DNA of 60,579 nucleotides, the filler included, from Globobulimina sp. (lineage: Eukaryota): the NCBI GenBank assembly GCA_003354225.1. It is 14 parts of 14 records of this genome, joined end to end, with 100 filler letters (N's around TTAATTAATTAA, not from the genome) between each part and the next. Parts side by side here need not be neighbours in the genome. Positions count along the whole stretch, not along the records: positions 4,341 to 8,579 come from PIVH01001429.1; positions 8,680 to 12,917 come from PIVH01001430.1; positions 13,018 to 17,253 come from PIVH01001431.1; positions 17,354 to 21,588 come from PIVH01001432.1; positions 21,689 to 25,923 come from PIVH01001433.1; positions 26,024 to 30,258 come from PIVH01001434.1; positions 30,359 to 34,593 come from PIVH01001435.1; positions 34,694 to 38,925 come from PIVH01001436.1; 6 more parts are not named here. One strand, given 5' to 3'. Position numbers and translations under genes: made by a program. How positions within the stretch are numbered: position 1 is the first letter of the stretch; each line of letters begins with the position of its first letter. Under the pieces are notes generated by a model. That model was given only the letters and a program-made list of their open reading frames with translations, searched no databases and was not told the origin of the DNA. This document shows positions 5,899 to 59,957 of this stretch, in pieces.

Positions 5899-7560
5899 AT
5901 GACATATAAGGCATCCACCAATATGTCGCCGATACAACCGCAAAAACGGAAAACAATGGAAGCGATAGAATATGGCAACATAAATATATTGCAGCCAGAC
6001 GTCGGCACTCCAAAAGCTGGTCACTTTGTAATTGCGACATCTTTATTATCGGAAATTAGAATCATTACGGCAATATTCGTACGTGTCGGCTTTCAAAATT
6101 TATCATCGCAAGTGCCGCTATTAATCTGTACATTTTTTATTGGCCATTTACCAGATGCAAATTTGTTAATAGCTGGAGCCGGATTGGCCATTGCATTCAC
6201 AGAAGTTACTGGAACATCTGTTGCAATGGGAATGTCCTCAGCATTGTCAATATTAGTACCACAAGCAATTGGTGCCAGGCAAAATAGATTAATCGCTATA
6301 TATTTCCAACGCTCATTCTGGATATGTGTTATTACCCTGATTCCAATTGGGATTCTTCAAGGATATGGCGGCTCCATTATGTGTGCTATTGGCCAACCAC
6401 AGAATATATGTTCTATTATAGAAAACTACTGTTTATTGCTCATAATATATGTAGAATTTTTCACTTTAATTAGTATTTTATCTCGAATTGGCCAGGCATT
6501 AGGTTTCAACACACATTTATTTTGTACCTCGGTAGTTTCGGGACTGTTAAGCCTTCCGTTAAATGGGCTATTTGTATACAAGTTGGATTATGGATATATT
6601 GGTATGCTTCTATAGAAAAACTATACTATAACAACGTTAATATGTTTTGTTTGTGACACAGGTACAGCAGTATCTGTTGCAATATGCACAGTTTTAGCTG
6701 CTATTATGATAGTGTTAGTATTGGTGTATCACGGATATGCGTTTATCTTTGCTCCTTTACCAATGCATGTTGTATTTACAAAAAAGGGCATTGACGAATA
6801 TTTGGGGTTAAGTCTGCCGATATTATTTCAAATATCGCTTCCGTTTTGGTTTTATGATCTTTGTGTATTGCTAAGTGGCTATGTGAAGAATCCAGACATT
6901 GCATTATCAGCAGGTACTATCATTGGTTCATTGCTGGTTTGCATGAGTTTAGTGTCTGAAGCGTTGTATTTAACAATATCGATGAGGGTGGGATCGTATA
7001 TTGGTGCCGGCAGTATTTATTATGCAAAAAGATCAGTGTTGGCTGCATTTATTGTGTATTGTGTTTATGCTGTAATTATTAGTGCATTGTTTGTAATTTT
7101 TCAAGATGATATTCCGTACATTTATACAAATAACGATGACACAGCAAAAGCGGTATCAGATTGTATGTATATTGTCGTATTTAGAGGCACTGTTTATGGG
7201 ATTTATATTAATATCGCTGCTGTATATCTGGGATTAGGCAAACCGAAATATCCCGCATATGTTATGTTTTTTACACAATGGGTTTTGAGCTTGTCGGTCA
7301 TGTTTTTTTTATTGTATGAGATGAAGTTAACAGACAATACATTGTATGGAATGTATGTTATATGGGCTACGCCTGCTGCTATTGGCTATGCTGTCGGTGC
7401 TGTGCTGTTATCATTATATTCGATTTTTGGATTGGATTGGAATGAAGCATTGGCTGAGTCAAAAGCAAGAATTGAAGGAGGTGTGACTGACTATGGATCC
7501 ATTGCTAAAAGTCCAGTTATAGAGACAGCGACATCTGACAAATTAATAGCTGGCCCGTAA
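5899..7560 (+). CDS. MATE-family efflux transporter (exons 5899-6601, 6662-7560)
   Basis: Multi-TM protein with GMSSALSILVPQAIGA and SMRVGSYIGAG. A 60-nt intron at 6602-6661 (GTATGC..CAG) joins GYI-G-TAVS in frame. Confidence 0.9.
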
Positions 7561-7628
7561 TATGTGTAGCTTTTCGACTTTTCTTTTTCTTAACAACAAC
7601 ACAACGACATGCATGATATATTTAATTG

Positions 7629-7951
7629 TTTTCGTAAAAAGGTTACCTTTTTGAATTGAACTCTGTTTGTTTGCTTTGATTTATTACTAGTTAAAATATA
7701 TAATGTTTCTCTTGTATATGTACCAATAACATGAATAAAATGACCCAAGACAAATCTATAGCAAACCGTTTCTGAATTTGCAAAGCGTTTCTCAGATAAT
7801 CGAATAGAATATATACAATTTATCGACCAGGGGGGGTATCTTTTTGATGATGCTAGTTATTGATAAACAAGTCGATGTACATGTACAAGAGAAACATAAA
7901 TCAAAGCAAACAAACAGAGTTCAATTCAAAAAGGTAACGTTTTTACGAAAA
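7629..7951. mobile_element. MITE-like element with ~75-bp terminal inverted repeats
   Basis: The left arm ttttcgtaaaaaggttacctttttgaattgaactctgtttgtttgctttgatttat is the reverse complement of 7896-7951 with 1 mismatch. After a 20-nt insertion the match continues (gtttctcttgta). Non-coding; no clear TSD. Confidence 0.7.
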
Positions 7952-8082
7952 GAGCCACATATTCACAGAAACAGGAAACACTCTTTAATATTATGAACAT
8001 CTTCAGCTGTGGTTGTAAAGTTTGCATTTGATTCAAGATGTTTTTTATTTTTTTGGACAGTATGATCTCACCCGGCCTCAAG

Positions 8083-8579
8083 TTAATCTGTTTGTTGCTG
8101 ATGTTTGATTATTCTGTGTATGTGGTTATGATCATATTGCAAGAGTTGAATCATTTGAATGCTATCATCACTCAAATCTAAATTGTATTCTTTCATCACA
8201 TTGACTCTTTTGTCAATACTATCTTTTCTCAGCAACAATAAGCATAAATTATTTTTAATTTTACTTTTTGAAATTGCATAATCATTGAACAAACTTTTGA
8301 AGCTCTCATCCAATCTCTCGACATCATTACAAATCAATAAATGTGGACATTGGTTCAATATTTCACTTATTTGAAACAAATCCATTGCTTTTAACCAAGA
8401 GATTATTTTTTTTAATTTATCCAAATTAATGCCTAATATTTGTGGTAATATTTGAATGATTTTAATATCAAATCCTTTAACATCACTCACATTTTCATGA
8501 ATAAAGTAAATTACTTTTTTAATATGACTCAATGTATAAATCATACATTGTGGATGTAAAACAATTAATTCTTTTACAT
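8083..8579 (-). CDS. mTERF-repeat protein, 3' part (5' truncated)
   Basis: Repeated motifs HPQCMIYT, LPQILGIN-LDKLKKIISWL, CPHLLICND and IDKRVNVM, typical of mTERF. Confidence 0.7.
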
Positions 8580-8679
8580 NNNNNNNNNNNNNNNNNNNNN
8601 NNNNNNNNNNNNNNNNNNNNNNNTTAATTAATTAANNNNNNNNNNNNNNNNNNNNNNNNNNNNNNNNNNNNNNNNNNNN

Positions 8680-9466: not shown

Positions 9467-11210
9467 TCAATCCCAACTTTCAGCGTTCGGTGTACGACCA
9501 CGAAAGCGATCCAAAGTGTGTTCAAGTCCTTGTATAATTTTCAACGACTTTTGTTTCATCATTTTATGTCTCTGCCTTGTTTTCCTGCATTCCATTCTCC
9601 AGTTTGTCCGAATCAATACAATCCAAATAATTGTCACTCTCACAATCGACACTGCCAAAGCAACCAACCAAATCATCGGAATTGCGTAATCCGGATTATT
9701 TTGCCGAATATCAGAATAAATGCCAAAATATACTGCAAATGGAACAAACAATAACCATGAACTTGATGTGTATAGAACTGCTCTTATCCTATTCCTTGAC
9801 ATTCCTTCCAAGACTCCACAAGCCGGACATCCAACTGCCTCAACAACAAAATTGAGTGCAATAATCGGCAATGTTGCATCCAAAATACATGTAACTTCAT
9901 CTTGGTCACTAAATATATTTGCAATGTACTTCCTGAATGAAAACACAATGACTGATATCACGCAACAAATGACAACTGTCAACAGTAAGGATAGCTTCAT
10001 TATTATTTTCAGTGACTTAGTATCGCCATTACTCACAGCTTTGCCTGATCTAATAACTGTCGCTAAGCCAACCCCCCAAAAAACAGCCCATAGCATGCTC
10101 CAAATATTAACCAACACCGCCATGGCGGCAACATCCTGAGGTCTTAACTGAGCAGACCACAAAGCTACAATTTGATACGGCCAGTTTTGAGACGCATCGC
10201 CAAGTGCTAACGGACCAATTATTTTCAGAAACGTCAGAATTTTTTGTTTTCCAAATGCTTTGCAGGAGAATCCATTCCATGCACCGGCTTTAATGTGATA
10301 TCGTTTGATTTTAATACACCACAAAATAAATAACAATAACTGCGAGAGTGTGGATAATGTGGTGGCCAACGGAGAGCCTTCAAATCCCAATCCATTCCAA
10401 CTACCAATTCCATAAATTAATATCTTATTTAATGCGATATTCGTTGCAATGCAAATCAAACCAATAATTGTTGCTGGTTTCACAATTTCTAAGGCTTGAA
10501 AGTATTGTAACAATGCCATATATAACACAGATGGCCAAATATATAACGAAGCATATTGACCGAATATCTGAGCATAATGCAATACATTTTCATCACTTTC
10601 GACCATTGATAGTACATTTCGCACATTGAATAGTAAAATAACTGTTGGAATACACATTATTGTGGTCATCAACATGTTCAATTGCAACCAATCACCGGTT
10701 AATTTATTATTTCCTGCACCAATCGCCTGCGCACATAATGAGCTTAGGCCATATGCTAAAATTTAATATGTTTTTGTTGGTGTTTGTGTAGGAAACATTT
10801 GATTTGGAGTAACATAAATATATACCAGGTGCATATAAAAAAGTTGATGATAATTCAGCAACGATGCAAGCTAAAGAAGCACCAGACAACTGATGCATGC
10901 CTAGGTGGCCAAGAAAAGCAGTGTCAATGTTATACATTGCAATTTGGGCAATGGTAGACGTAGAAACAGGCCATGCTAAATTCAACATTTGTTTGCATTC
11001 AAACTTCCAAATGTCGGTGGTGTGCTCCATTAATAATGGTACACTATTTGTAGATAATTGGCTTGGTTGTGGTTGGCAAATATTGTCTTCGCTTTCGGGC
11101 CGCAGTTGTGACGGATTAGAATAAACATTTTTTGTTGTTGGTGTACATCCGATGGAGATGCTTGGTTCATTGGTGAAACGTGGAGCATTTACAGAATTTT
11201 GACGATACAT
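9467..11210 (-). CDS. MATE-family efflux transporter (exons 11210-10826, 10755-9467)
   Basis: LNLAWPV, IDTAFLGHLG, LSSLCAQAIGAG and GLGFEGSPLAT. A 70-nt intron at 10756-10825 restores the frame. Confidence 0.92.
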
Positions 11211-16654: not shown

Positions 16655-17253
16655 TTACAATGATGAACATGTTTTATTGCCGATAAGCTCACATCGTGTC
16701 ATCGTTGGGCCTCCAGTACACACATTTTTATTTTCATTACTACCATAAAAATATTCACAAGCACTGTTATCTCCTTTGATCCAACAATCAAAGAATACTG
16801 CAACATACGCATCTTCTCGGTTTTTGCCAATAATACATGGATCATCATGCGTCGCACCTTTAATTTCCGCAAATATTTTTGGAGTCACCGGATCGTCCAT
16901 AAAACCACTATAAACATCATTTGGTGGAACTTGACGATCCAAGGAGCCGCTAAACCATAACATCGGAATCTTAACATTTCTTGATTCCGTTTTATCGCTA
17001 TCATCCACCACCGATGGATGCAAAGCCACTGAAGCTACGAGGCCTAAACCCGCATTGCCTGAAACATGAACAGTTGCGGCTCCACCCATTGAATGTCTTA
17101 TAATTTATCGAAAAATACATGAAAAACAATATAAAAATATAAAAGCAAGTACCCATAGAGTCCAATTTTACTATAATCGGCATAATCTAATACTGGATCA
17201 ATTTTGCCTTTTTGAGATTTAATGGTTGAAATGGTGGTTGCCACATCTTCATA
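16655..17253 (-). CDS. Alpha/beta hydrolase of cutinase/PETase/chlorophyllase-like type, 5' truncated (intron 17097-17152)
   Basis: Splicing gives KIGLYGHSMGGAAT (nucleophile elbow), then VALHP, PMLWFSGSLD (Asp) and IFAEIKGATH (His). Confidence 0.85.
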
Positions 17254-17650: not shown

Positions 17651-20064
17651 ATGTCAACTGAAAACCAAAGAAACGGCCCCGGACTGTTGGCAGGCGGTGC
17701 TGTCTCCAAAAAGGAAAAACGTATCTATATAATGACTCGCATCACCACTGCTGCAGTTATACTGATAGTGCTTATTATATTGATAGCCACCATACCACCA
17801 TCTGATGACTCACCATCTACACGCGACTGGACACAAGAATTCTTAAATGGTCCATCCGCACAATTCGCAAAAGAAAACTCACGTTTATTTACAGGAAAAG
17901 CTCATATCGCAGCAACACCACAAAATAATGAATATGCCTCTGATATTCAACAACAATTTGAAACAATGGGTATGGCTCAATCGGATATTTTGGTGACTGG
18001 CAATATATATTTATCATCTTATAATGGTTCATCTTTGTATCAAGTGAATGCGACCAACACTGATGAGACTCTCTTTGAATTTGATTTGTCAGAAGAATAT
18101 ATTGCAGCGGACCCAACATCAAACACTACATTACGCCGCCAAGCATGGTTAGGATACTCTGCCTCTGGCACTGTCACCGGATATGTGGTCTATGTTAATT
18201 ATGGTGCTGGCAAAGACTTTGATGTGTTGCTGAATACATTGAATTTTGATTTACAAAACCAATCTGTCATTGCATTGGTGCGATATGGTGCTTTGTTGAG
18301 AGGCATCAAGGCATTGAACGCTGCAGATTATGGGTTTAAAGCTGTGATGGTGTTCAGTGACCCTCAAGATTATGGATTCACGCGCGGCGATGTAGTGCCT
18401 GATGGTATGTAATTGTCACAGTCACAGCATATTGTATTTGCCAATCTTATATTAACTGCATAGGTCCTTATTTACCGGACAGTGGATTCCAACGTGGTTC
18501 GGCAGCCTTTTTTCAGCGATGTTTTGGTAATCCTTCGCCAGAGAGAGCTGTGGAAAGATGTGGATTTGACGATGTATCGCATATTTTACCATCAATTCCT
18601 ATAATCCCATTGTCGTATGGCAATGCAAGGAGATTAATGGAACAAATGAGTGGTTCTTTCGTGAATGATAGTGAATCGACTGTTGATTGGCAGGGCGGAA
18701 TGCAATTGGAATATAGAATGTTAATATTGTTACATTATAATAGTTTGTTTTAATTGATTCACATATTGTATAATATACAGAGGCACAGTGAATGAGAATG
18801 ATGGTGTTATGGTTCGTTTATCTGCGTCAACTATTTATGCACCAACAGAAATACAAAACGTTCGAGGGTTTATCCCAGGCTCTAAATATCCGAATGAATC
18901 GATTTTGTACGGCGCCCATCGTGATGCCTGGGTATTTGGCGCAGTCGATCCGGTTTCAGGTATTTTAATTTTACATAAGCTTTAATTTCTAAATCTATAT
19001 ATATGCATACTATCTGTTTAGGGACCACTTCTATCATTGAAGTCGCGCGAGCATTCACAAGGATTTATGACATGGGCTGGAGACCAAAGAGGAACATATA
19101 TTTTTTAAGTTGGGATGCTGAGGAATTTGACTTGATTGGAAGCACAGAATTCGGAGAGGAATATGAAGAACTTTTACAAACAGAGCTGGTGGCATATTTG
19201 AATCAAGACCAAGTTGTGTCTGGTCCTAATTTTAGGATTAGTGCTGATCCATTGATTGAACCCTTGGCTTTGGAATGTATGAAGAAAGTACGCCAACCAT
19301 ATCTCGACAATGATGCTGATTTTGAGTCAGTGTATGATAATTGGGCCAAGAATCGAAGCATTTTACAAACTGAAATGTTAGGCTCTGGCAGTGATTTTAC
19401 AGTATTTGTTCATGAATATGGTATTACTTCGATGGATTCTCGTTTTACAGGTGGTTATGGTACATATCATTCAATCTATGATAGTTATTTTACAATGTCA
19501 ACTTATATTGATCCGGATTATGAATATTTGCGCGCTGCGGCATCGGTTGTTGGCTTGATTGGATTTGAGTTGGTGAATAATGATATTATCCCGTTCAGTG
19601 TCTATAATTTATATATTCGTTTGAATGGCTTCTTAGATTTAATCGATCAGCTCTCGGTTGAATATGATTGCAGTGTTTCCAATGAATTAACGCAACACTT
19701 ATCGGCTGCCATGGAGCATTATGGTGAAAAGGCATTGCTTTTTGAGGCAAATGTGAATACTTTGAAAGATTCACAAGACACTGACTCTGAGAATTATAAA
19801 GCGTTAGTAATTCGGTATAATTCTGCGATGCGAACATTGGGTTCAAAATTTCTGTATGAGGATGGATTGCCAACGAGGAAGATTTTTAAAAATTTAATTG
19901 TTGCAGCTGCTGTGGAGAATGGTTATGGCCATCAGGTGTTACCATATATTGCGTATGCGATTAAATTTGAATGTGGTGACCAGGATTTGTTGGAGGAAGC
20001 ATATAATATCACTGCAAACGCAATATATGAGGCTGGTGAGTATTTGGAGAGTTTTAATTATTGA
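17651..20064 (+). CDS. M28 glutamate carboxypeptidase II / NAALADase-like type II membrane peptidase (introns 18405-18463, 18720-18780, 18960-19021)
   Basis: N-terminal TM, PA domain (VYVNYG, LVRYG..RGIK, FSDPQD) and metal/catalytic motifs GAHRDAW, GAVDPVSG, WDAEEF, YLNQD, GSGSDF and YHSIYD. All three GT-AG introns restore the frame. Confidence 0.95.
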
Positions 20065-22314: not shown

Positions 22315-25300
22315 TCACCAATAATATTTCTCAATCAATGGTGGACATTGCAATGCGTGTTCAATATTAATATATTTAATGAACTGTTTGCAATAATATA
22401 TATTTTGCGATGTTCTAAATGGTTTATTTTGATCCAAATTATTAAGTTTTGCAACATGTATAACAATAACATATAGATCAGGAATTTCGAATCCATCGCA
22501 ATCAATAACTGGTTTAAAATATAATTGATAATATTCGTTGGAAATTGAAGGATTAAACCAATACAATCGATCACCGAGTGCATCTCGAATATATTTTCTT
22601 TTTTTTTTATTGAAATATTTTTGTCCAACAATTTTACCTTTTTCATCCACCCCAAAATAAATACTTCCGCCAGAACCCTCATTCAAAAATAGATTTATAT
22701 ACATTTCGGCATTCTCAACAATGACATAAACATCGAGATATTGGGCATTAAGTTTTGTTGGAATATTTAAAAATTTATATTTGTAGCACATTTCTGACGG
22801 CATTACAATTGTCCTATTTTTTACGTAGGTTTTATCTTTTTTTAAATCCCTGACACTCGTCGCATATTTTTTGATTGGTATAAAATCAGTACATAAAAGC
22901 AAATCGTTTTTCCCTCTTTTATCATATTTATCTTTAATTAATCTCTCATTATATCGCGCATACATATTCACTCGATATCCCGCGCCACGGTCATAATTAT
23001 TATCTTTATCTTGTAAATTGTGTCGTATTTGCGCCAATTCTTTGGTTTTTACGTTTTGTATCCATATATCATCCCGCATCGATACAAAAACACGACCTAT
23101 ACATTTCCTGTCAATATTATTTTGTATGGACATACCTACGGCAGCTCGAAATCCTCGCGGTGCGATACAAATATCATAGGCAATATACACGGGATAATCG
23201 TTGTTATTCGCATTATTATTATTACCAATCATAAATGTCAAATTCATCCCAACCTCCAATGCATAAATCTCATCAGCATGCATGAACAACGCCGAATGAT
23301 ACAATATTGTCACTGCGTCTTCGTCATTGTCATCTTTGTGTCTTTTGGGATAGCTCAAAATCAACCCAACGGATGGTTGTTTTTCTTGATTTTCTTTACG
23401 TTCTTTAGTTTCTTGATTATCATCCACTGAAAATAAGTGTTTCCCAATCAACACACCTTCATATATTTGCTCGCCATAATATTCATCCACTATATATTGC
23501 GGCTCTTTTAATAATTGCTGCAAATCATATTTCCAATAATTAGACCTAGGAATCATGTCTTCAGCTAATAATACATCGCCACCACCGTTCTTTTCTTTGT
23601 ATGCATTTCTTTCTATTTCTTCTGTTTTTTTGTACAATTTGCGCAGATTCCATACATACTTTATTAACATTTTTGCGTCGGATACTTGCGGCTTCGTACC
23701 AATTAATACCAATCCCTCTTCTGCTGCTGAATAATTTAAATGTATTAATTTCGTTTGTTGAGCTATTCGCTTTAATTGAGACACTGTGGTTTGTGCATTA
23801 TGCATTGCATGATTTGAATCAAGATCTACATTTCCAAACATTAAAACTGACTGAAACTCCGCTATTCTCTCCCGTGATATGGGTAGAAATTCGCGAACAA
23901 TGCCATCATTGACAAATGGTTTCCTAGCAAATTATAAAATTTATACAGATAAATTTCGTTTTTCTCAACTGTTTACACTGGGAATTGACGTAACTGTTTG
24001 TTGTACGGCCGCAGCATATTATATTGCAAGACTTGGTGATGGTTATCCCAGCCTTTATAACCAATCAAATAAAAATTCTCTTGACTACTTTTAACGGTAC
24101 AATGCCACCATCCAAACGGCTGAGACTCTTTCGCTTTGGCTTTGCATTCAATATCATGGCCTTTTTGAGGTTTCCAATTATGTTTCGCGGGGAGCGCGAC
24201 TGGACGGACATAACTGACAGGTACACATTGATCTGGTTTCCACGTATATGCCACTTTTAATTTCTGCTCTTTTTCATCGTAATCAAATATAAACCCATCA
24301 AAATATGCAAAGGTTTCCTCACATTTTATCTCATATCGGCTACCAAAAAAAATGCGAATATTATTATCCTGCACCTGTACTACTTTCTTATTTTCTATTT
24401 TTTCATCTGTTTTTTCATCATTATCATTATCGTAATTATCATCAGCTGATATTTCTATTTTGTTGGCCTGTCCATGTTCTTCCTTGTCTGCTTTACTCGG
24501 CGTTATTTCTCGTTCTTCGTCGATCTTTTCGTCATTATCAAACTGCGTAAAAGGAACAAACGTAGCACCGTCTTCTTCTTGCGACATCATCGACAGCTCA
24601 GAGAAACAACGGGTCAATGGATTGGATACAAATCTCTCTAATGGCTCTAACGCAAAAAACATTTTTTCTTTCGCTTCGACATTCTTTTTTAATGCCGATG
24701 CATTTCCAGGAGTCTTTTCATCATTGTCATCGGCAGATATTTTCTTTTTTGTTGCATCCACTGAGGCCATTGGGGTGACATCGATATCGTAACTTAATTC
24801 CTGTGCGTTTGTAGCTTGATTATGTTGTTGCTTTGCTTGATTTTTTGGTTGTATCATATTAATATTATTAAGTATGTATAAAATATCCTGTTCACTGGTA
24901 CTCCACATAAATGCATCACTGTTTGCATCGCTGTCATAATTATTTGCCAGCGTTGAGATTGTATTTCTGTTTTGCATCAACAATTGCTTTATATTTATTT
25001 GTTGATCTCTGTTATAAGTACATTGTTTGTAACCTAATATTTGCTTCATATCTTCCGCAACATATCGTAGTTGCACAGCAAATAACTTTTCGCATCTTTT
25101 ATCGAAATATATCTCTGTCCACGCCAATTGATTGAAGTTACTCGTCTTTAATTTGTACGCTTTAATACCGTTTAATTTAATTGTATGGCCAAACAACGTT
25201 CTGGTAACTACGAAATAATTGACTTTGTATTGGATTATCTTATCTAAGCGAGTTAAACTGTACTTTATATCATATTCGTTTGACTCGCTAATATTTTCAT

Positions 25301-26023: not shown

Positions 26024-28286
26024 TATCAATTTATTCCTATCCAATTCGTCAATCTCTTCAAACTTATCCATATTTTCTGGTTTTCGGATCGCTGATAAGC
26101 TCACACTGATATTCTTCAACTTATTTTCATTTAATTTGCGATGGACATTACCTAAAACATCTTGATATGGATTAACAACAACTTCCTCCTCTTCCTCATC
26201 CTCTTCCTCATCCTCTTCATCCTCATCATCATCATCAAAAACAGGTTGGCACATTTTTTGTGTGGAATGCACCGAATTGCACGCAATTGTCATATCAAAT
26301 TGAAATTGAATATCTTCATTATTTTCATTATTAATAATAAATTGGATAATATCATTTGCAATGATTAAATACTGGATAATATCAGAAATATTATCATTTA
26401 TTATTGTCAATGGTTTGGTGATATGCATTGTCGGACATAATCGAGAATAAATATCAATTGCTCCAATTAATTCTTCTACTTTCTGCTTATTAATAATACC
26501 ATAGATTTTCGTGTGTTTCCTTAGAAAATCTTTAAATTCTACTTTGCGTTTATTAGTATCGATATCTTTTAACACAAATTGCAAACAATGTCGCACATAA
26601 ATATCAAGCAAATATTGCATAAATGGAAAATAATTGTTTTTAATGCCAATGGCCAGTCCATATCCAAATGAATGATCTGTTAATATTTTTTGACCAAACA
26701 CTCCATCACATTGCGACATATATATTCTTTGTGTCTGATCCAAATCATTTTGACTTAAATCATAATCAATTTCAAATACTTTATCTTGATACAAATACTT
26801 CTTTAAAAATATATTTGTCACTGATAAATGCGTCAATGCGTCATTCCCATATTTTATTCGTGCATCAAACCCAAACTTATAACAATGTTGTAATATTTTA
26901 AACATTTCCAACTTTTCTTGCTCTTTATTCAAAATAACATTTGTATTAAATGGGAAATCATCGGTAAAATCTGTCACCGCACACTCCAACGGATCTGCAT
27001 TTATTCCCAATTCGTCTGCAACCCCATCATCATCATAACCATTCTCGTCGCACCATTCGGCAAATAATCCATTCTCTGCTTCATTGTCATCCCGATAGTA
27101 ATTTGAATCTTCGCCTCTCATAGTTTCAATAATATGCACCCAATGCTTTATCAATGCCTTCAATCACAGCTGTTTAGCAAAAAAAAATGTGTTATATGCA
27201 AAATGAACAAATGAAGAGCAATATTCTTAACTGCTGTCGCTCTCATCGCCATCACCAATGATGGGAGTAACTGCAAGCTGTGACTGCAATGGATCAATTT
27301 CTTTCTGTTCTGGATCAATAATAGGAGTAAATGCAGTGGCTAACGGTCCAAATTCCTGTGGTCCATTGTTAGCAACTTCTATTGGAGTAATATTGCCGTT
27401 GTTTGTTTTTTTAACCGATTGCTTTCGGGGAAGAAAAGAATTTGATTCTTGTCGACTGAATGATTCACTTAAGTCAATTGGTGACAGTGCTGCTGCAAAA
27501 GTGGAAGATTGACTGTTTAACACATTGTTATTAATACTGTGCGCATCAACTATTTATAATGAATAGTAAATAATATATGCCATATTTTATATACCTATGT
27601 ACTGCTTAACATGTTTCGATCGATTCTTCTTTTTTACTGCCGATAGCAAATTCATTTTGTGTTTGATTTGTGTTTGGTGATTCTGAATGTGTAGGTTTGC
27701 TGTTTGTGATTTCACCAATGTTCGTTTTTGGTATATTTGGTGTATTTGGTTTAAATTTATTCTTATTTGTAGAAAGTGGAGAGATGGGAGTGAGTGGTAA
27801 TGAGTTAATATTGCTCGATCGATGAGAATGTGCAGAGCTGTTAAACGACGATGGCAGCCATGTTACTTGTGATGGTTCCTTATTACGAGAGATATTTACA
27901 TTTAATGTGGTTGCCGACGGCGTTGATGTTGCCGGCATATAAATGGGTATAGGTGGTGTTTCTGGAAATACATTGTTATAATTTGTTTGTTTTTGTTGTG
28001 TTTTGGGGGTATTTATATTTTCGTTCATTTGCATTTGATGATGTTGGAATTGTGCGTGATATCGCCTTTGAAGTTGGTCATAAGAGTTTCTTTCGTGAAT
28101 AAAAATTGCTTGTGCACAATTTAATTGCTGTTGGCACATTTCAATTACTGATTTGCCATAAGATGAATAAACACGTGATTTCTCCGTGCTTATTCTTTGT
28201 TGTAAGCCCGTAATTTGTCTATGTGAAACCGCTAGAATTTGTTTGCTTAATTCCAAATCATCTGCTGTGATTACCGGGAGTGGCAT
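26024..28286 (-). CDS. Hypothetical protein, 3' truncated (introns 27550-27610 and 27170-27231; +1 frameshift at ~27128)
   Basis: Two GTTAAG..AG introns of 61 and 62 nt link three ORFs. The third exon reads IDKALGAYY and then needs +1 to continue ETMRGEDSNYY..FAEWCDENGYDDD. Confidence 0.6.
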
Positions 28287-28462: not shown

Positions 28463-30207
28463 ATGAAAATCAATTCCTACGTATCATCGTCGTTTCTATT
28501 GTTTTTATCAATATTTTTCATTGAAACAACAGTAATTGATGCTACCGGTCCATCAAGAACAGGCCCAATCGATATATCATTCAACAACATATCTGATTAT
28601 TATTACAACCCAGAAAGAATATTATTTGTATTTAATCGAACGTGTGCTCAGCAATTACGAAATGGCACAGAAGATGAAGACACTCAAAATAAAATAGAAG
28701 AAGTTATTCAAAACATTGCCATGGTGTATCAAATGTGTCTCCGTCTCACAAACAATTCACACAATGTAACACATTATGATACACCAAAATATTCCTTTGC
28801 TTTTTTCGATATATTTTGTTCATATTACTCACTAAATCAAGGTGAATATAGCAATATAACCATTGACTATAACGATCTCTGTATCGTGTACATTATGTAC
28901 GAACCACTATACAATGCCTCCCAATTAGAACCAGAAACACTTCCCTCAGACGGTCCAGAATTTGCTTGTATGCGCTTAAACACTGCATATTATAAATCGT
29001 ACGGAATGGATTTCTTAGACTCTGATACTATGGATTATTCCTATTCCTATCCACAATTTACAGATGAAAACATTGCCAACCAACACAAAATTGATTTACA
29101 CATTTTAGGTATTACACATTTTTGGGTAGTACACAGTTTTTGAACTAACTTTGCAAAATGTAAAAATATCTAGACAGTGGCGTCCAGTCCGACCATGTCG
29201 AGTTTTATCCATGGCAAGTTATCCACGCTATGGGTGATGGGCCAGCTACCTATGAGAATAAATATGGCGACCACGGCACTCATGTGGCTGGAATTGCAGG
29301 GGGCAGAAATTATGGCGCTTCGCGTAATTTCACCATCTATGATTATCGTGTCTGCGAATTCATTAATTCGCAAGAAATGCCGTGTTATGGTCACAAGATA
29401 TTTGAAGCATTGTTCATGGTTTGGAGTCGAATAAAAAAGAGTGGCAAACCGGCAGTTATTAATTTATCGCTTGGCGGCAGGAAACCAACACCCGCCGAGG
29501 ATGCGTACCATTTTTATTTCGAAGAGATTATCGCCGTCGGCGGCATTCCTGTGGTGGCCGCCGGCAATGACAATGACGATGCCTGTTACACATCGCCTGC
29601 CTACTCGACGAACGCGATTACAGTTGGGAGCTATGATAGGTTCAGAAAGAAGTCCATTTTCTCCAATTGGGGCACTTGTGTAGACATTTGGGCGCCGGGC
29701 ACGTCGATATTTTCTGCGGTTGCGAGTGGCAAAGATGATCGATATGAATACAAACAAGGCACATCGATGGCAGCTCCGTATATTACGGGTATGGTCGCAA
29801 ATTTATTGTATGTGAACCCAGAAATGCGATTTGAAGATATAAAAACGTTATTATTGGCGCATACGAAACCGGTGAAAGGCGGAGTGTGTGCGGACGAGTT
29901 CGAGTGTAGAAGAGCGCAATATATCTGTGATTCGGCCTTGGTTTATGATTTGCCGCATATTTGGACTACGCTGGAGATTGTTTTGGTTGTGTTGGGATTT
30001 GTGGCTGTGTGTGTTTTGGCGATGGTGTGTATGTGGGTGGTTTGGAAAAGGAAGAGCAAGGATGAGGATGAGTATAGAGATAACAAGTGGCAGTATGATC
30101 AAGATGCATATGATGGAAATAAGAAACAAACAGAAGTGCAACATATAAATCCGAATACTGACGGAAATATAACACAACAACAATATATTACTGCTGTTGA
30201 CGCATGA
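28463..30207 (+). CDS. Membrane-anchored subtilisin (S8, proteinase K-like) with intron 29109-29173
   Basis: Signal peptide, the spliced Asp motif HILDSGV, HGTHVAG, VVAAGN, GTSMAAP and a C-terminal TM. Confidence 0.95.
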
Positions 30208-41932: not shown

Positions 41933-43257
41933 ATGAACCATACTGCCACGAAAAGACGGTCCCAATTATTAGTAAGTGGATACGTTAGGAAATGTAGCAC
42001 TCCATACATCCATACAGATATTATTAGCATTATTCATGCATTCCATTATTATATTTTATTGCTATTATATTCTATTGGTGCGAATGAGGAGGGACAACAA
42101 GGTAATGGAGGAAATGAAGATATTAAACAAATAACAAAAATAAAAACATTTGAAAAAGAAATAAAAAATATTGTTAGTTGTTCTGAAGAAGCATATATTT
42201 TATTTGATGATGAAACCTATGAATGTTGCGGTTATAATGGAAGGGGTGTATTAGGTGTTGGACATTGTAATAATATTAATATATGGCATCAAATAAAAGA
42301 TATGAAAATAAAAAATATATTTGCAGCACCATACGGATCAGATCACGCATTTTGTATTTCCAATGAGAATAAATTATATGCTGTCGGATGGAATAATGTG
42401 AATCAGTTTGGTATAAATACAAACGAAGAAAACAACAATCAATGGAGAGCAATTAATACATCATTCTCGATTCAAAAAGTAGTCACAGCAGGGCAATATA
42501 CAACATTTTTAAGTGATAATGGTAAAATATATGTTGCTGGTTATGATGATGGTGGTGGTGGTTTAGGATTAGGTGAAGATATTAAATCATCCCCAAATAT
42601 TCAAGAAATTCAAATAAAAATAAAATTTAAGGATATATATTGTGGACGTTCGCATACCTTAGCAATTGATGATAATTATGGTGTTTGGTCGTGGGGCAAT
42701 GGTTATTATGGTAGTTTAGGCCATGGAGATGTTAATAATAGATATTTGCCAACAAGAATACAATATTTTATTCAAAACAAGATTAAAATTGGTAAAATAT
42801 GTTGTGGTTATTATCATAATATATTATTATCATTAAATAACAAAGTTTTGTTCTTTTGTGTTGTGTTTACTTATTTTTACAAATATATTTTAATAAATAA
42901 ATAAGGCATATTGTTTTGGAGTGAATGTGCAGTATCAATGTGGTAATGGTTCAAATGAAACTGTATATTTACCACAACCAAATGAAACATTAAAAAAGGA
43001 AACAATTATTGATATTAAATGTGGTGGCTTTCATAATATTGTTAAAACAGTGGATAACAAATATTATTTATGGGGATATAATGAATATAATCAATGTTTA
43101 CATGTTGATGATGCCAATCCGCCATCACATATTAAGAAATTGTGGATATTTCGGTTTACAGAAATCATCCCGGTATTGAATATGACAGAAGAGAACAAAC
43201 TATTGTTGTGTTCAAAAGTGTTTTTGATATTTAGATTTTACCTAAACTCAAAAAGCA
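41933..43257 (+). CDS. RCC1-repeat protein with N-terminal VxGYxR module (intron 42845-42905); 3' end truncated or chimeric
   Basis: CGRSHTLAI..VWSWGNGYYGSLGHG, CCGYYHNI and KCGGFHNI..YLWGYNEYNQC. Confidence 0.9.
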
Positions 43258-43494: not shown

Positions 43495-45463
43495 TTACTG
43501 TGTTGGATTATTATCACTGGCATTTGTGATTAGGTTTGTATTTGTGTTTGTGTTCGTGTTTGTGTTTGTGTTTGTGTTTGAATTTGTATTTGTGTAAAGA
43601 GTAAAATTATGTTTATGAGTAAGTATATTTTTAACAAAATGAAAGTATTCGTGTTTTAATAATTGGTGTCCAAAAATGCGTTGATTGGCCCTCCATTTTA
43701 AGCATCTTGAAACTAAGTCGTATAAATGGCGATGCTCTAATTTGTGTAAATTGAAGTAAGCGTCCAATCGCTTTGCCTGTGCTCTTGACCGCTTTGCCTC
43801 GGCCAATTTCAAGGTACCATCGGGATGATGGAATAATTGCTTATATTTGGCATCCGAGGAGGCGCGGATTAAATCTCTGGGGAGAGCGCCAATCATTTTT
43901 TGCATTTGATTCAAATGATCGATGGGACAGTGCGTATTGAACACCATAGAACCATACAAAAACTCCAATACGACACAACCGACAGACCAGACATCCACCG
44001 GCCTCTTCCACGCCATTTCTAATACAACCTCTGGGGCCCGGTAATGGCGCGTCTGGATCAAATAATTGTATCCATCCTTAAACTTCCATGTTTTTGGGTT
44101 GTTTGGGTCATACCGCGGTTCGTAGACCGCAGAGCCAAAATCTACAATTTTAATGCGTGTATCGAGTGGTATTAAATGCGTTTTGTTGTGTATGCGAACT
44201 GGATAAGTGCGACCATCCACAAACACCATGTTTTCCGGTTTCAAATCGGTGAATATTATGCCCAAATGGTGTAGAAACTGTATGGCATTACAGATCTGAT
44301 ACGTTAACGATCGAGCAATGCAATCTGGGAATGCTCGGAATCTATTTCGTGACATTATTGTGTATATGGAAGGGCCATATAATTTAAACACAAAACATGG
44401 ATGTTGCTTCCATGAGAAGTGGTCTTTTAAATGGATACAGGCCGAGGTGCCGTCATCTGCGTTGGTCAAATGCTGTAATACTCGTAATTCGGTTTTTGCT
44501 GCTTCTATATATCTATGAGTGTTTCGGATCACTTTTATAGCACATCTTGTTTGATCCGATACGTCGACGGCTTCAAATACCTTAGAAAATGTCCCTGCAA
44601 TTTGCGATTTTGCGTAATTATAAGAATATTGATTTGTTTACATTTCACACATGTTATTGTTACATACCTCGGCCTAAGATATCCGTCAAAACAAACTGGT
44701 TTCGTATAAACAGGCCAGCCTGAAATTCGATGTATCCCTTTTCGTCTGTTTTGTAGGTCGGCGGTCGTTGCAATTTGAATAGTTTTTGTATTTCTGGGGT
44801 GGCCATATTTGCTCGAAATACATTAGTTGGAAGATGGGCATATTCGCGAGTCGGGAACTGCTGTTTAATGAGTGCAACATTACAAATATTAGTATTTCTT
44901 AGATTTTTGTTACATTTTAATATGTGTTTCTCGTCTTTCATCATAATATGAATATGTACAGCAAATTGAGCAAAAAAAAGGATTATGATCATGCAAATTA
45001 TTAATTATGTCACTTGACAGTCATACTAGTCGCACTTAACTGGTCTGGCCTTTTTCTTTTGTTTTGTGGGATAACTATGCGAGAGTTTGCCGCCACCATT
45101 TATTTGGGTCATGGAGGAGGAGGAGGAGGAGGATGTTTTATTTTTATTATTGCCGTGATTTGAGATCGATTTTGTTGTCGTATATTTGCTTTTGTTTCTT
45201 TCTTGTCGTCGTTGTTCTCGTTGCTGTTTTTGTAAATGTTGTAAATATTCGCGTTGTTGCCGTAAATATTCTTTTTGTAGTTCGGTTGGCGTCGAAGTCG
45301 AATGATTGTGCTGATGTTTGTTTTTGTTCTTATTGGTGGAATGCGAGGAATGTTGTTTATGATCGTCGTCGTGAGAATCAGTGGGTGCTATTTTTTTACT
45401 GTTTCTGTTTGTATGTTTTTTCGTAAAACCAAATTTTTTAAATACTGATTGCAAATCGCTCAT
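43495..45463 (-). CDS. CLK/LAMMER-family dual-specificity kinase (introns 44861-45040, 44595-44667; probable 3' intron)
   Basis: DEKGYI, LGRGTFSKV, AIKVIR, EAAKTE, TDLKPEN, VDFGSA, IQTRHYRAPEV, DVWSVGC and a LAMMER-position DHLNQMQKMIG. Confidence 0.9.
43535..43594. repeat. (TTTGTG)n hexamer microsatellite
   Basis: About 10 degenerate tttgtg/tttgta units, probably inside a terminal intron of the kinase gene. Confidence 0.8.
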
Positions 45464-49740: not shown

Positions 49741-49895
49741 GTCAAATGTATAATCTTTAATAGTGAGAAAAAAAAGGTTATTTGATGTAATATTGGAGTC
49801 AAATTATAAGTTGATCCTTGCACTGATTTTTCTTTAAACAAAATTAATGCTCCAAATAAATAACACAATGTTTACATTAAATAGCAAGACATTCA

Positions 49896-50454: not shown

Positions 50455-51490
50455 ATGGCATTTGTTCAGTTAGGAGCAGATAATAAAGTGTTAAAAGAGA
50501 GTATTCAGTCAAAATTAGAAGCAGACAAAAAAGAGCCTTGCGATGCGAAATTATATGATTTTGATGATGTCTTTTATCGATTATTCGTGGACCCCGATGA
50601 TAGAAGTAAATTATTAATAGAATTAACTACGTCAAATTGGTCAGAAATAAGAAAATATGGCGCCGAGGATAGAATAAAAGATAAATTAGGTTCATGGTTA
50701 ACTAATTTTGGAGATGATGGCGCTTCGTTCACCGTGCCATTGGACGACGAAAAAACGTGCTCAAAATCTGGTATTTTTACCTATCTCTGCGGTGCTCGCA
50801 AAATCGCAATATATTTCCATAAATAATACCGTAAACAGTGGAGGTCGCAGAGGCTTTTAGCAAATTAAGAATCTATGCATTGGGTGGTCCATTATATCAA
50901 TATTGTAAAGCGTTGCAATCAGGAAAAGCATTAACAAAAAAACTACAGTTTCCATTACGCCGTGATACATATTGTTGGATTGTGCCCAAAGGTGATCGCG
51001 TTGTGGTTGTGTTTGCCTTGGAATTCCCCATTAAGACTGATCGAATTATTGGCAATCAAATATTGACAGTTTAGTTAATATATTGCGATTTTGCGAGTAT
51101 ATAATGTGTGAATGTTGATTAAATGCGAAGGAATTCCTTGAAGTGAGACGACAGAAAGATTTACAAAGCGCGCCCGTCATATCATATGCTCCCAAACCGC
51201 CGGCTGAGTTGAAAGGGTGTAAGATACCGTCATTTGATAAACAAGGATTTTTAGGATATTTTACCATATTATTATTGCCATCGCATGTCAAAGGAGCCAA
51301 ATTGGATAAAGCAGTTGAAAATGTTGTTGGATTTCGAGCATATTTGACGTATCATATTAAATGTGCTAAAGCGTTCTTTCATCAATCTATGAGGGCGAGA
51401 GTTAAAATAATGTTACAAGTATTGAACAGAGCAAGATATGAACCGGATGATAAACGTAAAAAAAAGAAAATTATCAAATCTGCTCGATAA
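50455..51490 (+). CDS. ARPC2: Arp2/3 complex subunit 2 (p34-Arc) (introns 50771-50838, 51069-51130)
   Basis: DFDDVFYRL, DRVVVVF, APVISYAPKPPAEL and FRAYLTYHIKCAKAFFHQSMRARV..LQVLNRA. Confidence 0.95.
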
Positions 51491-55128: not shown

Positions 55129-55320
55129 GTTTTTTAAGTTTTTTTTTGTTAAAAAAAAAACACTCAGCTCAACAACTACAATTATTAACAAATGTCAAAA
55201 TGCGAGGATCGATAACAGCAACACATTTAATTTAATTTAATTTAAAAACTGATCTGATAAATAAGTAAAATTAAAAAAATAAATAAGTAAAAAAAGTAAG
55301 AAAAAAAAAGGTGTAATGAC

Positions 55321-56350: not shown

Positions 56351-56768
56351 CCACCAAACCCATAATTTGTATCAGGTCTTGGTGCGCCTAAAACAAATTC
56401 ACCATCGGGACCAGTCACATTATGTGCTTTTTTCCTTTGTCTTTCGTCGATTTCCACTTCAAACTCAACCTCTTCTCCTTCAGCTAATGAGCGAAATCCT
56501 TGCGAATGGACTGCGGTTTGATGCACAAATATTTCATCATTGTTATCATCATCTACTATGAAACCAAACCCTTTCTCTGAATTAAACCATTTTACTGTTC
56601 CTTTTCTTTTGTCTCCGCCAAACTTATTATGTTAAGTGATTCGTTATAAATTTATTATAAAGATGTAACAATACATACTGTTGAAAACATTCTATTGTTT
56701 TGATGCTGGAATTGACGGATGATACATGTTGCTGGTTTGCCCAAACGCTTTAATATCAGAGATTGCAT
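56351..56768 (-). CDS. Cold-shock-domain protein with mitochondrial-type presequence (intron 56623-56678); 3' truncated
   Basis: Spliced product [78 protein letters not shown]. Confidence 0.9.
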
Positions 56769-56989: not shown

Positions 56990-58097
56990 ATGTTAACTTC
57001 TGCTGCGAAAAGAAAATTAACCTCACTCCGACATCCTCAACAAAGTCTTCGTTATAAAGCAACCATTGTACACCCCATAGATATTGAACAAACTGAGATA
57101 TCATTTAAACCATTCCAGCCAATTGATGAATGGTTGTCAACTAAACCAATAAAAGCATGGATACAACAATACAACCAAGTCGGTTATCTTATTATTCCCA
57201 ATATCATTGATCCTGACAATCTACCTATTTATCAACAAATGGTATGTTTATTATTTCTGCGGTAACAAAAACATGTACAACGTGCTATAAACAACTTATA
57301 TGCATAGTATGATGACTTCTTATCCAACAAAATCGATGCAGGGCGACATCGACATGATTTAGGAAGCTGTGAGGAAAGACACAATGCAGAAATAGAAAAC
57401 ATAACACAAATCATGTGGCCTACGCGTTATGTATGCAATCTTCAACAAGGACCATTTCATTCTCGTGCTTTAATTGTATCAAAATTGCTGCTTGGATATG
57501 ATTCTGCATTTGATTTTGATATGATGTTATACAAAGCATCCAATATTCCAACAGCTACGCCATGGCATCAGGATGCTGCTTATTGGCCTGCCATGCCAGA
57601 TGCGCGCAGTGCAACTTTTTGGTGTCCAATGGATGATGTTGAGGTTGAAAGTGGTACATTATGGTATCATCCGTATGGATTGGAACGAGCACGGACAGAA
57701 ACAAAGTTGTTCAAACATGAAGCCGCTGCAAAGGGATGTCATGTGTTGAAGATAAATGATAATGAATTTAGCAAAGAAATGGAGAGAAAATGTGATGGCG
57801 TTGGAATTGCTTGTCCAATCCCGGCTGGTTCAGTTAGTTAAAATTTAATTATATATATTGTATGTATTCATATACAATATCTGTTATATGGGTTGAAAGT
57901 GTACAGTTCATCATGGATATACACCGCATTTTGCAGGTGGGAATAATTCAAATAAACAGAGACGTGCATTTGTTGCGAGCTGCAGACCTGAATCAATGGT
58001 GCAATTTGAAAGAGAGCAAGGGTTTGATCATGGATATGATGGAGTGGATAATGTATTGTTGACAAATCAGCTATCTCGATCAAATTATAAATTATAA
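56990..58097 (+). CDS. Phytanoyl-CoA dioxygenase (PhyH) family Fe/2OG enzyme (introns 57242-57307, 57833-57899)
   Basis: GYLIIPNI, TPWHQDAAYWP, TFWCPMDD..SGTL and AGSCTVHHGYTPHFAGGN..RRA; basic presequence-like N-terminus. Confidence 0.92.
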
Positions 58098-58240
58098 TCC
58101 AGATCTCAAGTAGTTTGACACTGCTTGTGTGTACATGTATATTTATGCACTGTGTTACTTTTAAGTTCTTCCATTCTTTTTGTAAATTCTTCTGGTTTAA
58201 AAAGTAAAATAACAACGCGTCTCAATGACATGATTTACAT

Positions 58241-59047
58241 CTATAATTTTGAATTTTTTGCGTTGAACGCTGCGAAAAATTGAGCAATTTCTCGTTTTCT
58301 TTGTTGATACTTTTTATATTTTAAATCAAACATTTTTGAATGAATATAGTTATGGTTTGGTAATGACCGCATTCGTTTAATCCAGTTAGAAATATTTGGA
58401 AATTGTTCATCAATAAAATTATCATTCAATTTGTGTACGTTTTCATTCATTAAGTCCCAAATATAAATTTGCACAATTTCTTCATAACAAAAAATATCTG
58501 CGATGGATAGTAAATTATCCACAATGAATAATTGCGAGGTTCCTAAAATTTTATCATTTAATATTTTCATTGCATTGTATGCAATTTTTCTTTTTTGTAA
58601 TAAATTATCATTTTTTATAAATCCATCCAAAGATTTTTTAACCATTAAAATTGGCGCCAAATATCCAAATGATAACATTCGTGTATTCCCATGATGCCAA
58701 TGCAAATATTCATCAATCTTTGCCCTTCTTTTCAAATTAAAATTATTCGATGGATACAATGAATTCCATTTGAATTTTGTGCATAAATATTGCATAATTG
58801 CTGCACCTTCAAATAATATTAAACCGTTTGTATCTTTAATCGCCGGTATTTTCCCATCAAATCGAATATTTTTGAAATAGTAATCATCATTTTTTCTGTA
58901 TTTGGTAGGAATATAAGGATTAATAACCACCAAATCATAATCACTAAATTCTTTCATTGAACACAGCCACATTATGGATCGCGTGGGATGACTGATTGGC
59001 ATTCCATACAGTTTTAATTTTGTTTTTGTTTCCATTAAATGTGGCAT
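58241..59047 (-). CDS. Glutathione S-transferase, theta class, with PTS1 (SKL)
   Basis: SHPTRSI, GKIPAIKD..LFEGAAIMQYL, RAKIDEYLHWHH and LSIADI; ends SKL. Confidence 0.92.
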   Translation of the reverse strand: MPHLMETKTKLKLYGMPISHPTRSIMWLCSMKEFSDYDLVVINPYIPTKYRKNDDYYFKNIRFDGKIPAIKDTNGLILFEGAAIMQYLCTKFKWNSLYPSNNFNLKRRAKIDEYLHWHHGNTRMLSFGYLAPILMVKKSLDGFIKNDNLLQKRKIAYNAMKILNDKILGTSQLFIVDNLLSIADIFCYEEIVQIYIWDLMNENVHKLNDNFIDEQFPNISNWIKRMRSLPNHNYIHSKMFDLKYKKYQQRKREIAQFFAAFNAKNSKL

Positions 59048-59154
59048 CCAACAAGTTTTTGATTCTAAAAACTGTTTTTTTTTTCAGTTCGACTGAATAA
59101 TAACTTCTTTTGTTTGCCTTTGCAACGTGTAAAAGGTGATTACTAAATACAATA

Positions 59155-59957
59155 ATGTCAAACTATAATTTTGGTCTCACCACATTCGATCAATCCGGTA
59201 AATTGACCCAACTCGACAACTCATTGAAGGCAGTCTCAAATGGAGATACATCCCTCGGTAAATAAATATTTTTGCATTAAAATGAAATACGCATTATCGC
59301 AAATCTTACCATTAATAAAACAAAACAAACACAAAAATAGGCATTCGTGCTAAAAATGGTGTGGTCATAGCAACGGAAAAGAAGCCACATTCGCCATTGG
59401 TAGATGCAAGTGATTGGAATAAAGTGTATAAAATCTCGGATAGCATAGGATGTGTCTATAGTGGCATTGGTGCCGATGCGCGTTTATTAGTTCGCAAAGC
59501 CAGAAAAGAAGCAGAAGTATATAAGCGAGGCTATAATGAGTCCATTGGCACCAATTTATGTGCAAAGAAATTAGGTGGCATCGCGCAAGAATTTACACAA
59601 TCGGGCGGTGTGCGGCCATTTGGTGTCAGTCTATTAATTGGTGGCTACGATAAGCAACGGGGCTGCCAGTTATATCAAGTGGACCCAACGGGAGCTTGGT
59701 GGTGTTGGAAAGCCTCCGCAATTGGAAAGAATCAGACCAATGCCAAACATTTTTTGGAGAAAAGATACAACGATGACATGGAGTTAGAGGATGCCATCCA
59801 TGTGGCTTTGTTGACTATAAAAGAGGGATTCGATGGCGATGTGACTGCGAAAAATATACAATTAGGGGTTGTGCGGTTAAATAAAAAAAAACAGAAATAT
59901 CAATTTGATGTATTAAACACGGAGGAAGTGCAAGACTATCTCGATCAAATCAGCTAA
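59155..59957 (+). CDS. PSMA2: 20S proteasome subunit alpha-2 (intron 59258-59340)
   Basis: LTTF..SGKL, GVVIATEKK, QEFTQSGGVRPFGVSLL, WKASAIGKN and FLEKRYNDDMELEDAIHVALLTIKEGF. Confidence 0.95.

Follow-up and report, generated by a model that had tools for sequence, protein, structure and literature searches.

Two classes of 5' splice site with coupled -1 and +3 bases among the introns of a Globobulimina genomic window

Introns of the window fall into two classes of 5' splice site

The introns of a 60.6-kilobase (kb) stretch of DNA from the foraminifer Globobulimina sp. (assembly GCA_003354225.1; hereafter the window, that is, the whole stretch analyzed) show two kinds of 5' splice site, and the division between them is real. 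Class I donors read G/GTAT(G)T and class II donors read (C or A)A/GTTAAGT-like, the slash marking the boundary between exon and intron. Among 16 verified introns, each with a junction fixed by transcript, homologue, or domain-model evidence, nine donors were G/GTA and seven were H/GTT (H, non-G), with no G/GTT, no H/GTA, and thus no mixed case (Fisher p = 8.7e-5). A first-pass annotation of the same sequence had proposed this association between the last exon base (-1) and the third intron base (+3), and a share of about 40% for the GTT donors; both proposals are borne out, the latter with seven of 16 verified introns (44%).

The coupling was observed at every level of stringency. The strictest set, limited to ten junctions supported by a transcript or by a homologue at the residue level, contained five G/GTA and five H/GTT donors and neither mixed type (Fisher p = 0.008). 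When probable introns were included (n = 18), the counts of G/GTA, G/GTT, H/GTA, and H/GTT were 10, 0, 1, and 7 (Fisher p = 2.5e-4), and when the unsettled donors at 23994 and 31467 were also counted (n = 20), they were 10, 1, 1, and 8 (Fisher p = 9e-4). Such a link was absent from 1633 non-splice GT sites (decoys) located in open reading frames (ORFs) of at least 250 amino acids, where +3 was A in 19% and T in 32% of the sites after G, and A in 23% and T in 37% after non-G; the coupling is thus not an effect of composition.

The two classes also differed at other positions. All nine class I donors had G at -1 and A at +3, followed by T at +4 in 7/9, G at +5 in 3/9, and T at +6 in 7/9, and G was never found at +6. 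The seven class II donors had C at -2 in 4/7, A at -1 in 5/7, T at +3 in 7/7, A at +4 and at +5 in 5/7 each, G at +6 in 5/7, and T at +7 in 4/7. The G was therefore one base further into the intron in class II, at +6 instead of +5 (5/7 class II versus 0/9 class I donors with +6 G, p = 0.005), and +4 A, +5 A, -1 A, and -2 C were each more frequent in class II than among decoys (p = 0.005-0.04). Class II resembles the general CAG/GTAAGT consensus, and class I resembles GTATGT. Cleavage in class II takes place at A/GT or T/GT, and this position is exact, being given by contigs without positional ambiguity and by residue-level continuity with homologues. The median intron length was 65 nucleotides (nt) in class I and 62 nt in class II, in which five of the seven introns measured 61-62 nt.

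The reading-frame phase also varied with the class: eight of the nine class I introns were in phase 1, mostly splitting G/GN glycine codons, and the class II introns were in phase 0 (four), phase 1 (two), or phase 2 (one).

Verification of the exon-intron junctions

The window is compact and AT-rich (G+C content 32-35%), with long ORFs on both strands and short gaps between them, and is interrupted by N masks every ~4.3 kb. An ORF encoding a CLK kinase showed 92% identity to a transcriptome-derived protein, and its nearest named relative was from Reticulomyxa filosa (58%); therefore, the window is foraminiferal nuclear DNA. Across the window, neither transfer RNA genes nor Rfam families at the gathering threshold were found.

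The twelve G-preceded donors of the first-pass annotation had been given without coordinates, and we replaced them with an independently rebuilt set. The introns were rebuilt from evidence that is blind to the donor sequence, namely spliced contigs from a closely related organism, alignments to homologous proteins, and the continuity of residues in Pfam and PDB alignments; codon-usage scoring was too weak to place junctions. The strict definition of a verified intron was adopted because the assembly contains single-base indels and because frame-compatible GT..AG pairs are abundant at most ORF junctions. Junctions for verification were chosen by the analyst. Contig mapping covered positions 26024-30258 and used four runs (X1-X4). 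Runs X1-X3 were taken as RNA-like, which is a guess, because GT..AG joints were present in X1-X3 and not in X4, which was taken as DNA-like. The contigs of X1, X2, and X3 were ~90-95% like the window, and therefore come from a close relative of its species. Three joints were present in X1-X3 contigs but not in X4: 27170-27231 (minus strand), 27550-27610 (minus strand), and 29109-29173 (plus strand).

The single-base indels resemble homopolymer-type assembly errors. At position 27128, one base was missing in all four runs, including the DNA-like X4, and its removal restored the frame after the 27170 acceptor. Similar frameshifts were seen on the minus strand in a phospholipase-B gene (3205-3239) and in a gene with a repeated Cys-rich domain (49100-49760).

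The nine verified class I introns are the following:

6602..6661, plus strand, 60 nt, attg/GTATGCTT, MATE transporter gene
10756..10825, minus strand, 70 nt, cctg/GTATATAT, second MATE gene
17097..17152, minus strand, 56 nt, atgg/GTACTTGC, alpha/beta hydrolase gene
18405..18463, plus strand, 59 nt, gatg/GTATGTAA, M28/transferrin-receptor-like peptidase gene
18960..19021, plus strand, 62 nt, tcag/GTATTTTA, M28/transferrin-receptor-like peptidase gene
29109..29173, plus strand, 65 nt, ttag/GTATTACA...ATCTAG, subtilase gene
44595..44667, minus strand, 73 nt, cgag/GTATGTAA, CLK kinase gene
50771..50838, plus strand, 68 nt, tctg/GTATTTTT, ARPC2 gene
59258..59340, plus strand, 83 nt, ctcg/GTAAATAA, proteasome alpha-2 gene

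In the first MATE gene, the stop-containing stretch 6602..6661 coincided exactly with a 17-residue gap in the alignment to the paralogous MATE gene of the window. In that second gene, the intron 10756..10825 links two MatE ORFs and leaves a spacing of 27 residues to the QAIGA motif, versus 28 in the paralogue; an alternative donor would insert five more residues. The donor at 17152 belongs to the sole candidate junction listed for its ORF pair, and splicing yields ...GLYG-HSMGG..., the G-x-S-x-G nucleophile elbow of alpha/beta hydrolases, the ORF past the intron matching positions 130-230 of a PETase-like hidden Markov model (HMM). The peptidase introns were fixed by homologues that run unbroken across the junctions: P0121 at 18405..18463 (query 24-255 then 255-339, ...VVPDG/GPYLP...), and P0121, P0123, P0124, and P0125 at 18960..19021 (...DPVSG/TTSII...). 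The joint of the subtilase intron was found in X1, X2, and X3, not in X4, and GT..AG fits only with the cut moved by +3. In the kinase gene, P0001, P0002, and P0004 were unbroken across 44595..44667, and P0001 was 79-94% identical in its two aligned pieces. In ARPC2, ORF residue 117 corresponds to residue 101 of the bovine chain and the position 83 residues further on to residue 184, a count that is exact only when both 50771>50838 and 51069>51130 are removed as introns. Finally, exon 1 of the proteasome gene stops at residue 37 of chain 7qve_i, in a split Gly codon, and exon 2 starts from residue 38.

The seven verified class II introns are the following:

18720..18780, plus strand, 61 nt, gaat/GTTAATAT, M28/transferrin-receptor-like peptidase gene
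27170..27231, minus strand, 62 nt, agca/GTTAAGAA...AAACAG
27550..27610, minus strand, 61 nt, acat/GTTAAGCA...AAATAG
42845..42905, plus strand, 61 nt, caaa/GTTTTGTT, RCC1-repeat gene
44861..45040, minus strand, 180 nt, acca/GTTAAGTG, CLK kinase gene (moderate support)
51069..51130, plus strand, 62 nt, gaca/GTTTAGTT, ARPC2 gene
57833..57899, plus strand, 67 nt, ttca/GTTAGTTA, PhyH-type dioxygenase gene

Two of them were read directly from contigs. The joint 27549>27611, present in X1 and X2, has 151 letters on one side and 255 on the other, and its position is unambiguous; the joint 27169>27232 was present in the same two runs with a short side of just 28 letters; X4 reads through both. Position 27169 is also exactly where three more RNA-like contigs end or diverge, and the first letter of the piece across the joint is at 27232.

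The peptidase junction at 18720 is supported by homologues P0121 and P0123, and its split codon AT/A encodes the I of a Y-x-I-G motif conserved in P0123 and P0130. In the RCC1-repeat gene, the RCC1-like domain HMM matched at 144-269 in the upstream ORF and at 266-347 in the downstream ORF, and splicing gives ...SLNNK/AYCFGVN..QCG, consistent with the RCC1 repeat pattern. For 44861..45040, P0002 aligns downstream from 44854, the upstream exon ends in a stretch that aligns with the basic patch of this protein, and further frame-compatible donor and acceptor GT..AG pairs are present at this junction. The P34-Arc HMM matched at 56-137 then 139-242 on either side of 51069..51130, and the S. pombe chain continued from residue 196 to 198 without a gap. 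The transcript-derived P0271 (76-84% identical) reads ...AAGS/CTVHHGYTPH... across 57833..57899, and this junction was placed by P0271 alone, the PDB and Pfam spacing being too imprecise.

At 27169/27170 (minus strand), an RNA-like X3 contig carrying another organism label stopped matching exactly at 27169 and continued with 255 letters unlike the next exon or intron of the window. In that contig, the exon upstream may be a diverged or an alternative one, the last bases of which also read ...CA.

Tandem in-frame acceptors, with a CAG and more AGs within 3-9 nt, were observed at 6661/6667/6670 (plus strand), which share the donor at 6602, and at 44861/44858 (minus strand). They could give alternative 3' splice sites differing by 1-3 codons.

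Probable introns and doubtful donors

All nine GTT donor strings of the first-pass annotation are present in the window at the positions given for them (five on the plus and four on the minus strand), and its sub-counts are exact (+6 G in 7/9, GT at +6/+7 in 5/9, a preceding CA in 5/9). As introns, seven of the nine were verified, 45040 with moderate support; of the other two, 23994 is ambiguous and 31467 is doubtful. These two donors and two probable introns are listed below:

57242..57307, plus strand, 66 nt, aatg/GTATGTTT, probable class I intron, based on the ORF junction only
56623..56678, minus strand, 56 nt, aaca/GTATGTAT, cold-shock-domain gene, probable intron and H/GTA exception
23924..23994, minus strand, aaca/GTTACGTC, earlier GTT donor, ambiguous
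31467..31531, plus strand, aatg/GTTTCGTT, earlier GTT donor, doubtful

With the probable intron at 57242, the G/GTA donors numbered ten in all. The cold-shock-domain ORF has no start codon, and M...MFST comes from the upstream ORF; an in-frame alternative to the donor at 56678, gtat/GTATTGTT, likewise has a non-G base before GTA. The acceptor paired with 23994 can be reached from three in-frame donors (24006 GTACAA, 23994 GTTACG, and 23976 GTAAAC), and residues 1-220 of ORF 22318-23931 scored no homologue among the 490 candidates searched. The stretch 31467..31531 is crossed by a 1087-aa ORF, of which it forms a hydrophobic N-terminus; a signal-peptide exon in the upstream frame is as plausible as this read-through, and there may be no intron. 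Near 12544-12628, two alternative junctions were indistinguishable, and both begin with GTT.

Other candidates were rejected. The candidate 3808..3730 (tgca/GTTTGTGA) falls in the gap that follows the stop codon of a MYND-finger gene and precedes the phospholipase-B ATG, and 55249..55176 is intergenic. The ORF overlap at 3205-3239 in the phospholipase-B gene is a 1-nt frameshift instead of an intron, and the region 49100-49760 (minus strand) was set aside, as its repeated Cys-rich domain contains several frameshifts.

The donors of U12-type (minor) introns carry the extended motif RTATCCTT. None of the 16 verified donors had TATCC at +2 to +6. A candidate donor on the minus strand at 49024, caca/GTATCCAT, is similar to the U12-type donor motif and lies in a region without a verified gene model.

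Complementarity of the two classes to U1

The donors were scored against the canonical 5' end of the U1 small nuclear RNA (snRNA), AUACUUACCUG (as printed in PMC9311317), which may not be the organism's own U1. Under this assumption, the canonical register was the best one for 9/9 class I donors, and class I exceeded 66 decoy G/GTA sites in the canonical register only (p = 0.003). In class II, a register shifted by one base gave more pairs than the canonical register in six of the seven donors, the exception being 18720. Compared with 470 decoy H/GTT sites, class II donors formed more pairs in the shifted register (7.00 versus 5.21, p = 0.004), but not in the canonical register (4.71 versus 4.99, p = 0.74). 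The class II donors thus have added complementarity to a canonical U1 when it is shifted. A register in which the U at +3 is bulged also scored above decoys (6.57 versus 5.41 pairs, p = 0.016).

The first-pass annotation had described the GTT donors as the CAG/GTAAGT consensus displaced by one base, and fitting a +1-shifted U1 register. The displacement of G to +6, the -1 A and -2 C, and the shifted-register score agree with this description. However, class II is not the GTA consensus of this organism slid by one base, because class I has T at +4 (7/9), whereas the equivalent +5 position of class II is T in 1/7 and A in 5/7 (p = 0.04).

A single recognition motif could account for both classes. 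U1 snRNA would read G-N-U-A-(A/U)-G-U via its 5'-end positions C9, A7, U6, U5, C4, and A3. Where N is G, the cleaved GU would consist of N and the next base, and the first G would be exonic, giving G at -1 and A at +3. Where N is U, the only GU would start at the first G, giving non-G at -1, U at +3, and G at +6, and cleavage would occur one base upstream of the point set by the U1 register. G at -1 would be obligatory in class I and dispensable in class II because C9 of U1 would pair with the -1 G in the former and with the +1 G in the latter, and the -1 A and -2 C of class II would pair with U10 and G11 in the shifted register. We favor this mechanism, with about an even chance of its being correct; one motif with two registers would explain the -1/+3 coupling, the +6 G, the -1 A, and the -2 C together; the shifted register would then serve ~44% of introns. 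From the donor sequences, we infer both that U1 here keeps the canonical CC/A7 core and that it binds in the shifted register.

Several observations weigh against this one-motif mechanism. The different preferences at class I +4 and class II +5 do not follow the simple displacement, and the preference for a shift over a bulge on the basis of exon-side pairs is marginal (p = 0.047). By simple counts, 27610 pairs best with a bulged +3 U (eight pairs, versus six when shifted), 18720 pairs better in the canonical register (seven) than in the shifted one (five), and 42845 is weak in all registers. The lack of -1 G in class II (0/7) is compatible with background (p = 0.18). The probable exception at 56678 (aaca/GTATGT) indicates that the -1/+3 rule is not absolute. 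Moreover, the scoring presumes a canonical U1 5' end and not the organism's own sequence, and the data are 16 introns from one 60-kb window.

Alternatively, the cell may contain two U1 snRNA species, a standard one for class I and one with a variant 5' end for class II, for example with the base opposite +2 changed (CAGUUAAGU pairs perfectly). The data are accounted for about equally well by the shifted register and by a second U1 whose 5' end matches class II, and a clean split with distinct downstream preferences (+4 T in class I, +5 A in class II) is what two recognizers would be expected to produce. Precedents appear in passages of two reports, which describe U1 5' ends that have co-evolved with donors in Entamoeba and Mastigamoeba (10.1101/2022.06.08.495308) and a diplonemid with two U1 genes of differing 5' ends (PMC12621601). 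However, a variant is not required, because a standard U1 already gains significant complementarity when shifted, and no snRNA gene was found in the window with Rfam even at E up to 1, where two sub-threshold chance matches were the only hits. We therefore regard two U1 species as a possible explanation, clearly behind the one-motif mechanism.

Class II might instead be bound in bulged (U at +2 or +3) or mixed non-canonical registers, in which +1 G and +2 U are paired and pairing resumes at AAGU; class II would then dispense with -1 G owing to a longer intronic helix. The bulge(+3) score above decoys, the best register of 27610, and the fit of 0/7 -1 G to background are in line with this, as is the difference of at most one pair from the shifted register for 45040 and 57833, and +2/+3 bulge registers are among validated human sites (PMC4856993, legend of Figure 1C and Table 3). 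Yet a bulge predicts that -1 G, which pairs with C9, should still be helpful, and it was found in 0/7 class II versus 9/9 class I donors. The enrichment of -1 A (5/7) and -2 C (4/7), which pair with U10 and G11 only when shifted, is left over, and the exon-side pairs of class II in the canonical or bulge register were no better than those of decoys (p = 0.65). A bulge, including the compensation of -1 G by a longer helix, seems an unlikely basis for class II.

It is very improbable that the two classes reflect a small sample, a modelling artefact, or a local deviation in a genome with one degenerate donor consensus. Such an artefact would be helped by the size of the sample, the choice of junctions by the analyst, 1-nt assembly indels that can imitate exon junctions (as at 27128), and the two of nine earlier GTT donors that were not fixed. 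However, the junctions rest on transcripts and homologues independently of the donor sequence, the genes are unrelated to each other, the coupling is significant both in the 16 introns and in the strictest ten and is absent from decoy GT sites, and all four frame-compatible donors listed for the ORF pair of 18720 start with GTT. Least credible of all are recently inserted, related (introner-like) elements carrying their own GTTAAG end, which the narrow length range of five of the seven class II introns and the presence of GTTAAG in three of the seven might suggest; with the ends removed, their pairwise alignment scores equal those of shuffled sequences (15.95 versus 16.05 +/- 0.74), class I introns are of similar length, and the host genes are old and conserved.

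Comparison with known donor systems

Experiments in human cells have established pairing in the shifted register (PMC9311317, PMC4856993), and the passages of these papers on U1 registers credit it to Roca and Krainer 2009 (ref. 66 in PMC9311317, ref. 10 in PMC4856993) and describe shifted and +2/+3 bulge sites as small minorities of human sites. Human shifted sites, of the form CA/GUUAAGU, are like class II in that the cleaved GU lies one base upstream of the best U1 complementarity, with U at +3, G at +6, and an exon ending in CA. In human genes, however, they are atypical alternative registers alongside a GUAAGU-type main class, whereas here the shifted pattern makes up 7/16 verified introns, including those of housekeeping ARPC2, kinase, and peptidase genes, and coexists with a GUAUGU-type main class. 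The human registers were assigned with suppressor-U1 rescue, as described in part of PMC4856993; those proposed here were read from sequence alone. The bulge and asymmetric-loop registers (Roca et al. 2012; Tan et al. 2016, PMC4856993) are similar in that an extra intronic nucleotide near +2/+3 moves the pairing of AAGU by one, but as described there they retain the pairing of -1 G, while class II is devoid of -1 G and enriched in -1 A and -2 C.

Among protists, the preprint of Roy and Bowser (10.1101/2022.06.08.495308) reports, in the parts relevant here, that 88-90% of Entamoeba introns have GUUUGU donors and that U1 reads AACAAAC, and that U1 of Mastigamoeba is ACGUAC. The Entamoeba GUUUGU(U) donors show that U at +3 can be a normal and frequent donor base in a protist, tied to U1 complementarity. 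The Entamoeba genome is intron-poor, and its donors form one homogeneous class whose G lies at +5, in contrast to the two classes, the +6 G, and the coupling of +3 to the last exon base found in the window. A donor transformed throughout the lineage, as in Entamoeba, was thus not observed, GTT and GTA donors being found in 7/16 and 9/16 introns. Class I (G/GTATGT, +4 T in 7/9) is similar to the GUAUGU donors that the same preprint describes in yeasts, Giardia, and Trichomonas, which are intron-poor and have a single donor class, unlike the two classes here.

For Foraminifera and Reticulomyxa, canonical GT-AG intron ends are stated in passages of PMC6783311 and PMC13746701, and a 'minor-like' figure of 2.1% is given for R. 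filosa in part of PMC11347168. Full-text literature searches, the coverage of which ended short of the supplementary tables of PMC11347168, found no description of donor classes in foraminifera.

Other observations in the window

An ORF on the plus strand at 47690-48100 matches a bacterial-type single Cache domain 2 (E = 3e-30). It lies in an island of 45-48% G+C within DNA of 33% G+C, directly past an N mask, and may represent either a piece of a bacterially derived gene or a chimeric join in the assembly.

Compared with the kinase of the window, the deposited Reticulomyxa filosa model P0007 contains an extra stretch, V L D S F Y ... K L Q, which may be a translated, unrecognized intron. In that case, introns of this group may be going unnoticed in annotation pipelines.

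Significance

The shift or bulge of U1 on a donor is itself known as a rare mode in human genes, and co-evolved U1 is known from lineages with one transformed donor; the new elements here are how often the displaced pattern occurs (~44% of verified introns) and how cleanly the -1 and +3 bases are coupled in a single genome. It is possible, although we lean toward doubting it at present, that in Foraminifera close to half of the major-spliceosome introns follow one 5' splice-site code and the rest another, the reader being either a single U1 that uses two registers or a pair of U1s with different 5' ends. If this is true, the base that closes the exon and the base at +3 would be coupled throughout the genome, and standard gene finders would systematically miss ~40% of the donors in this group. 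Annotation of foraminiferal genomes is poor, and GTT introns would escape a donor model trained on GTR. If nearly half of ordinary introns are displaced in this way, these organisms would offer a natural system for studying how the cleavage site is set independently of the U1 register. They would also provide a test of the diversification of the U1 5' end inside one cell, and would show how donor classes originate and are maintained.

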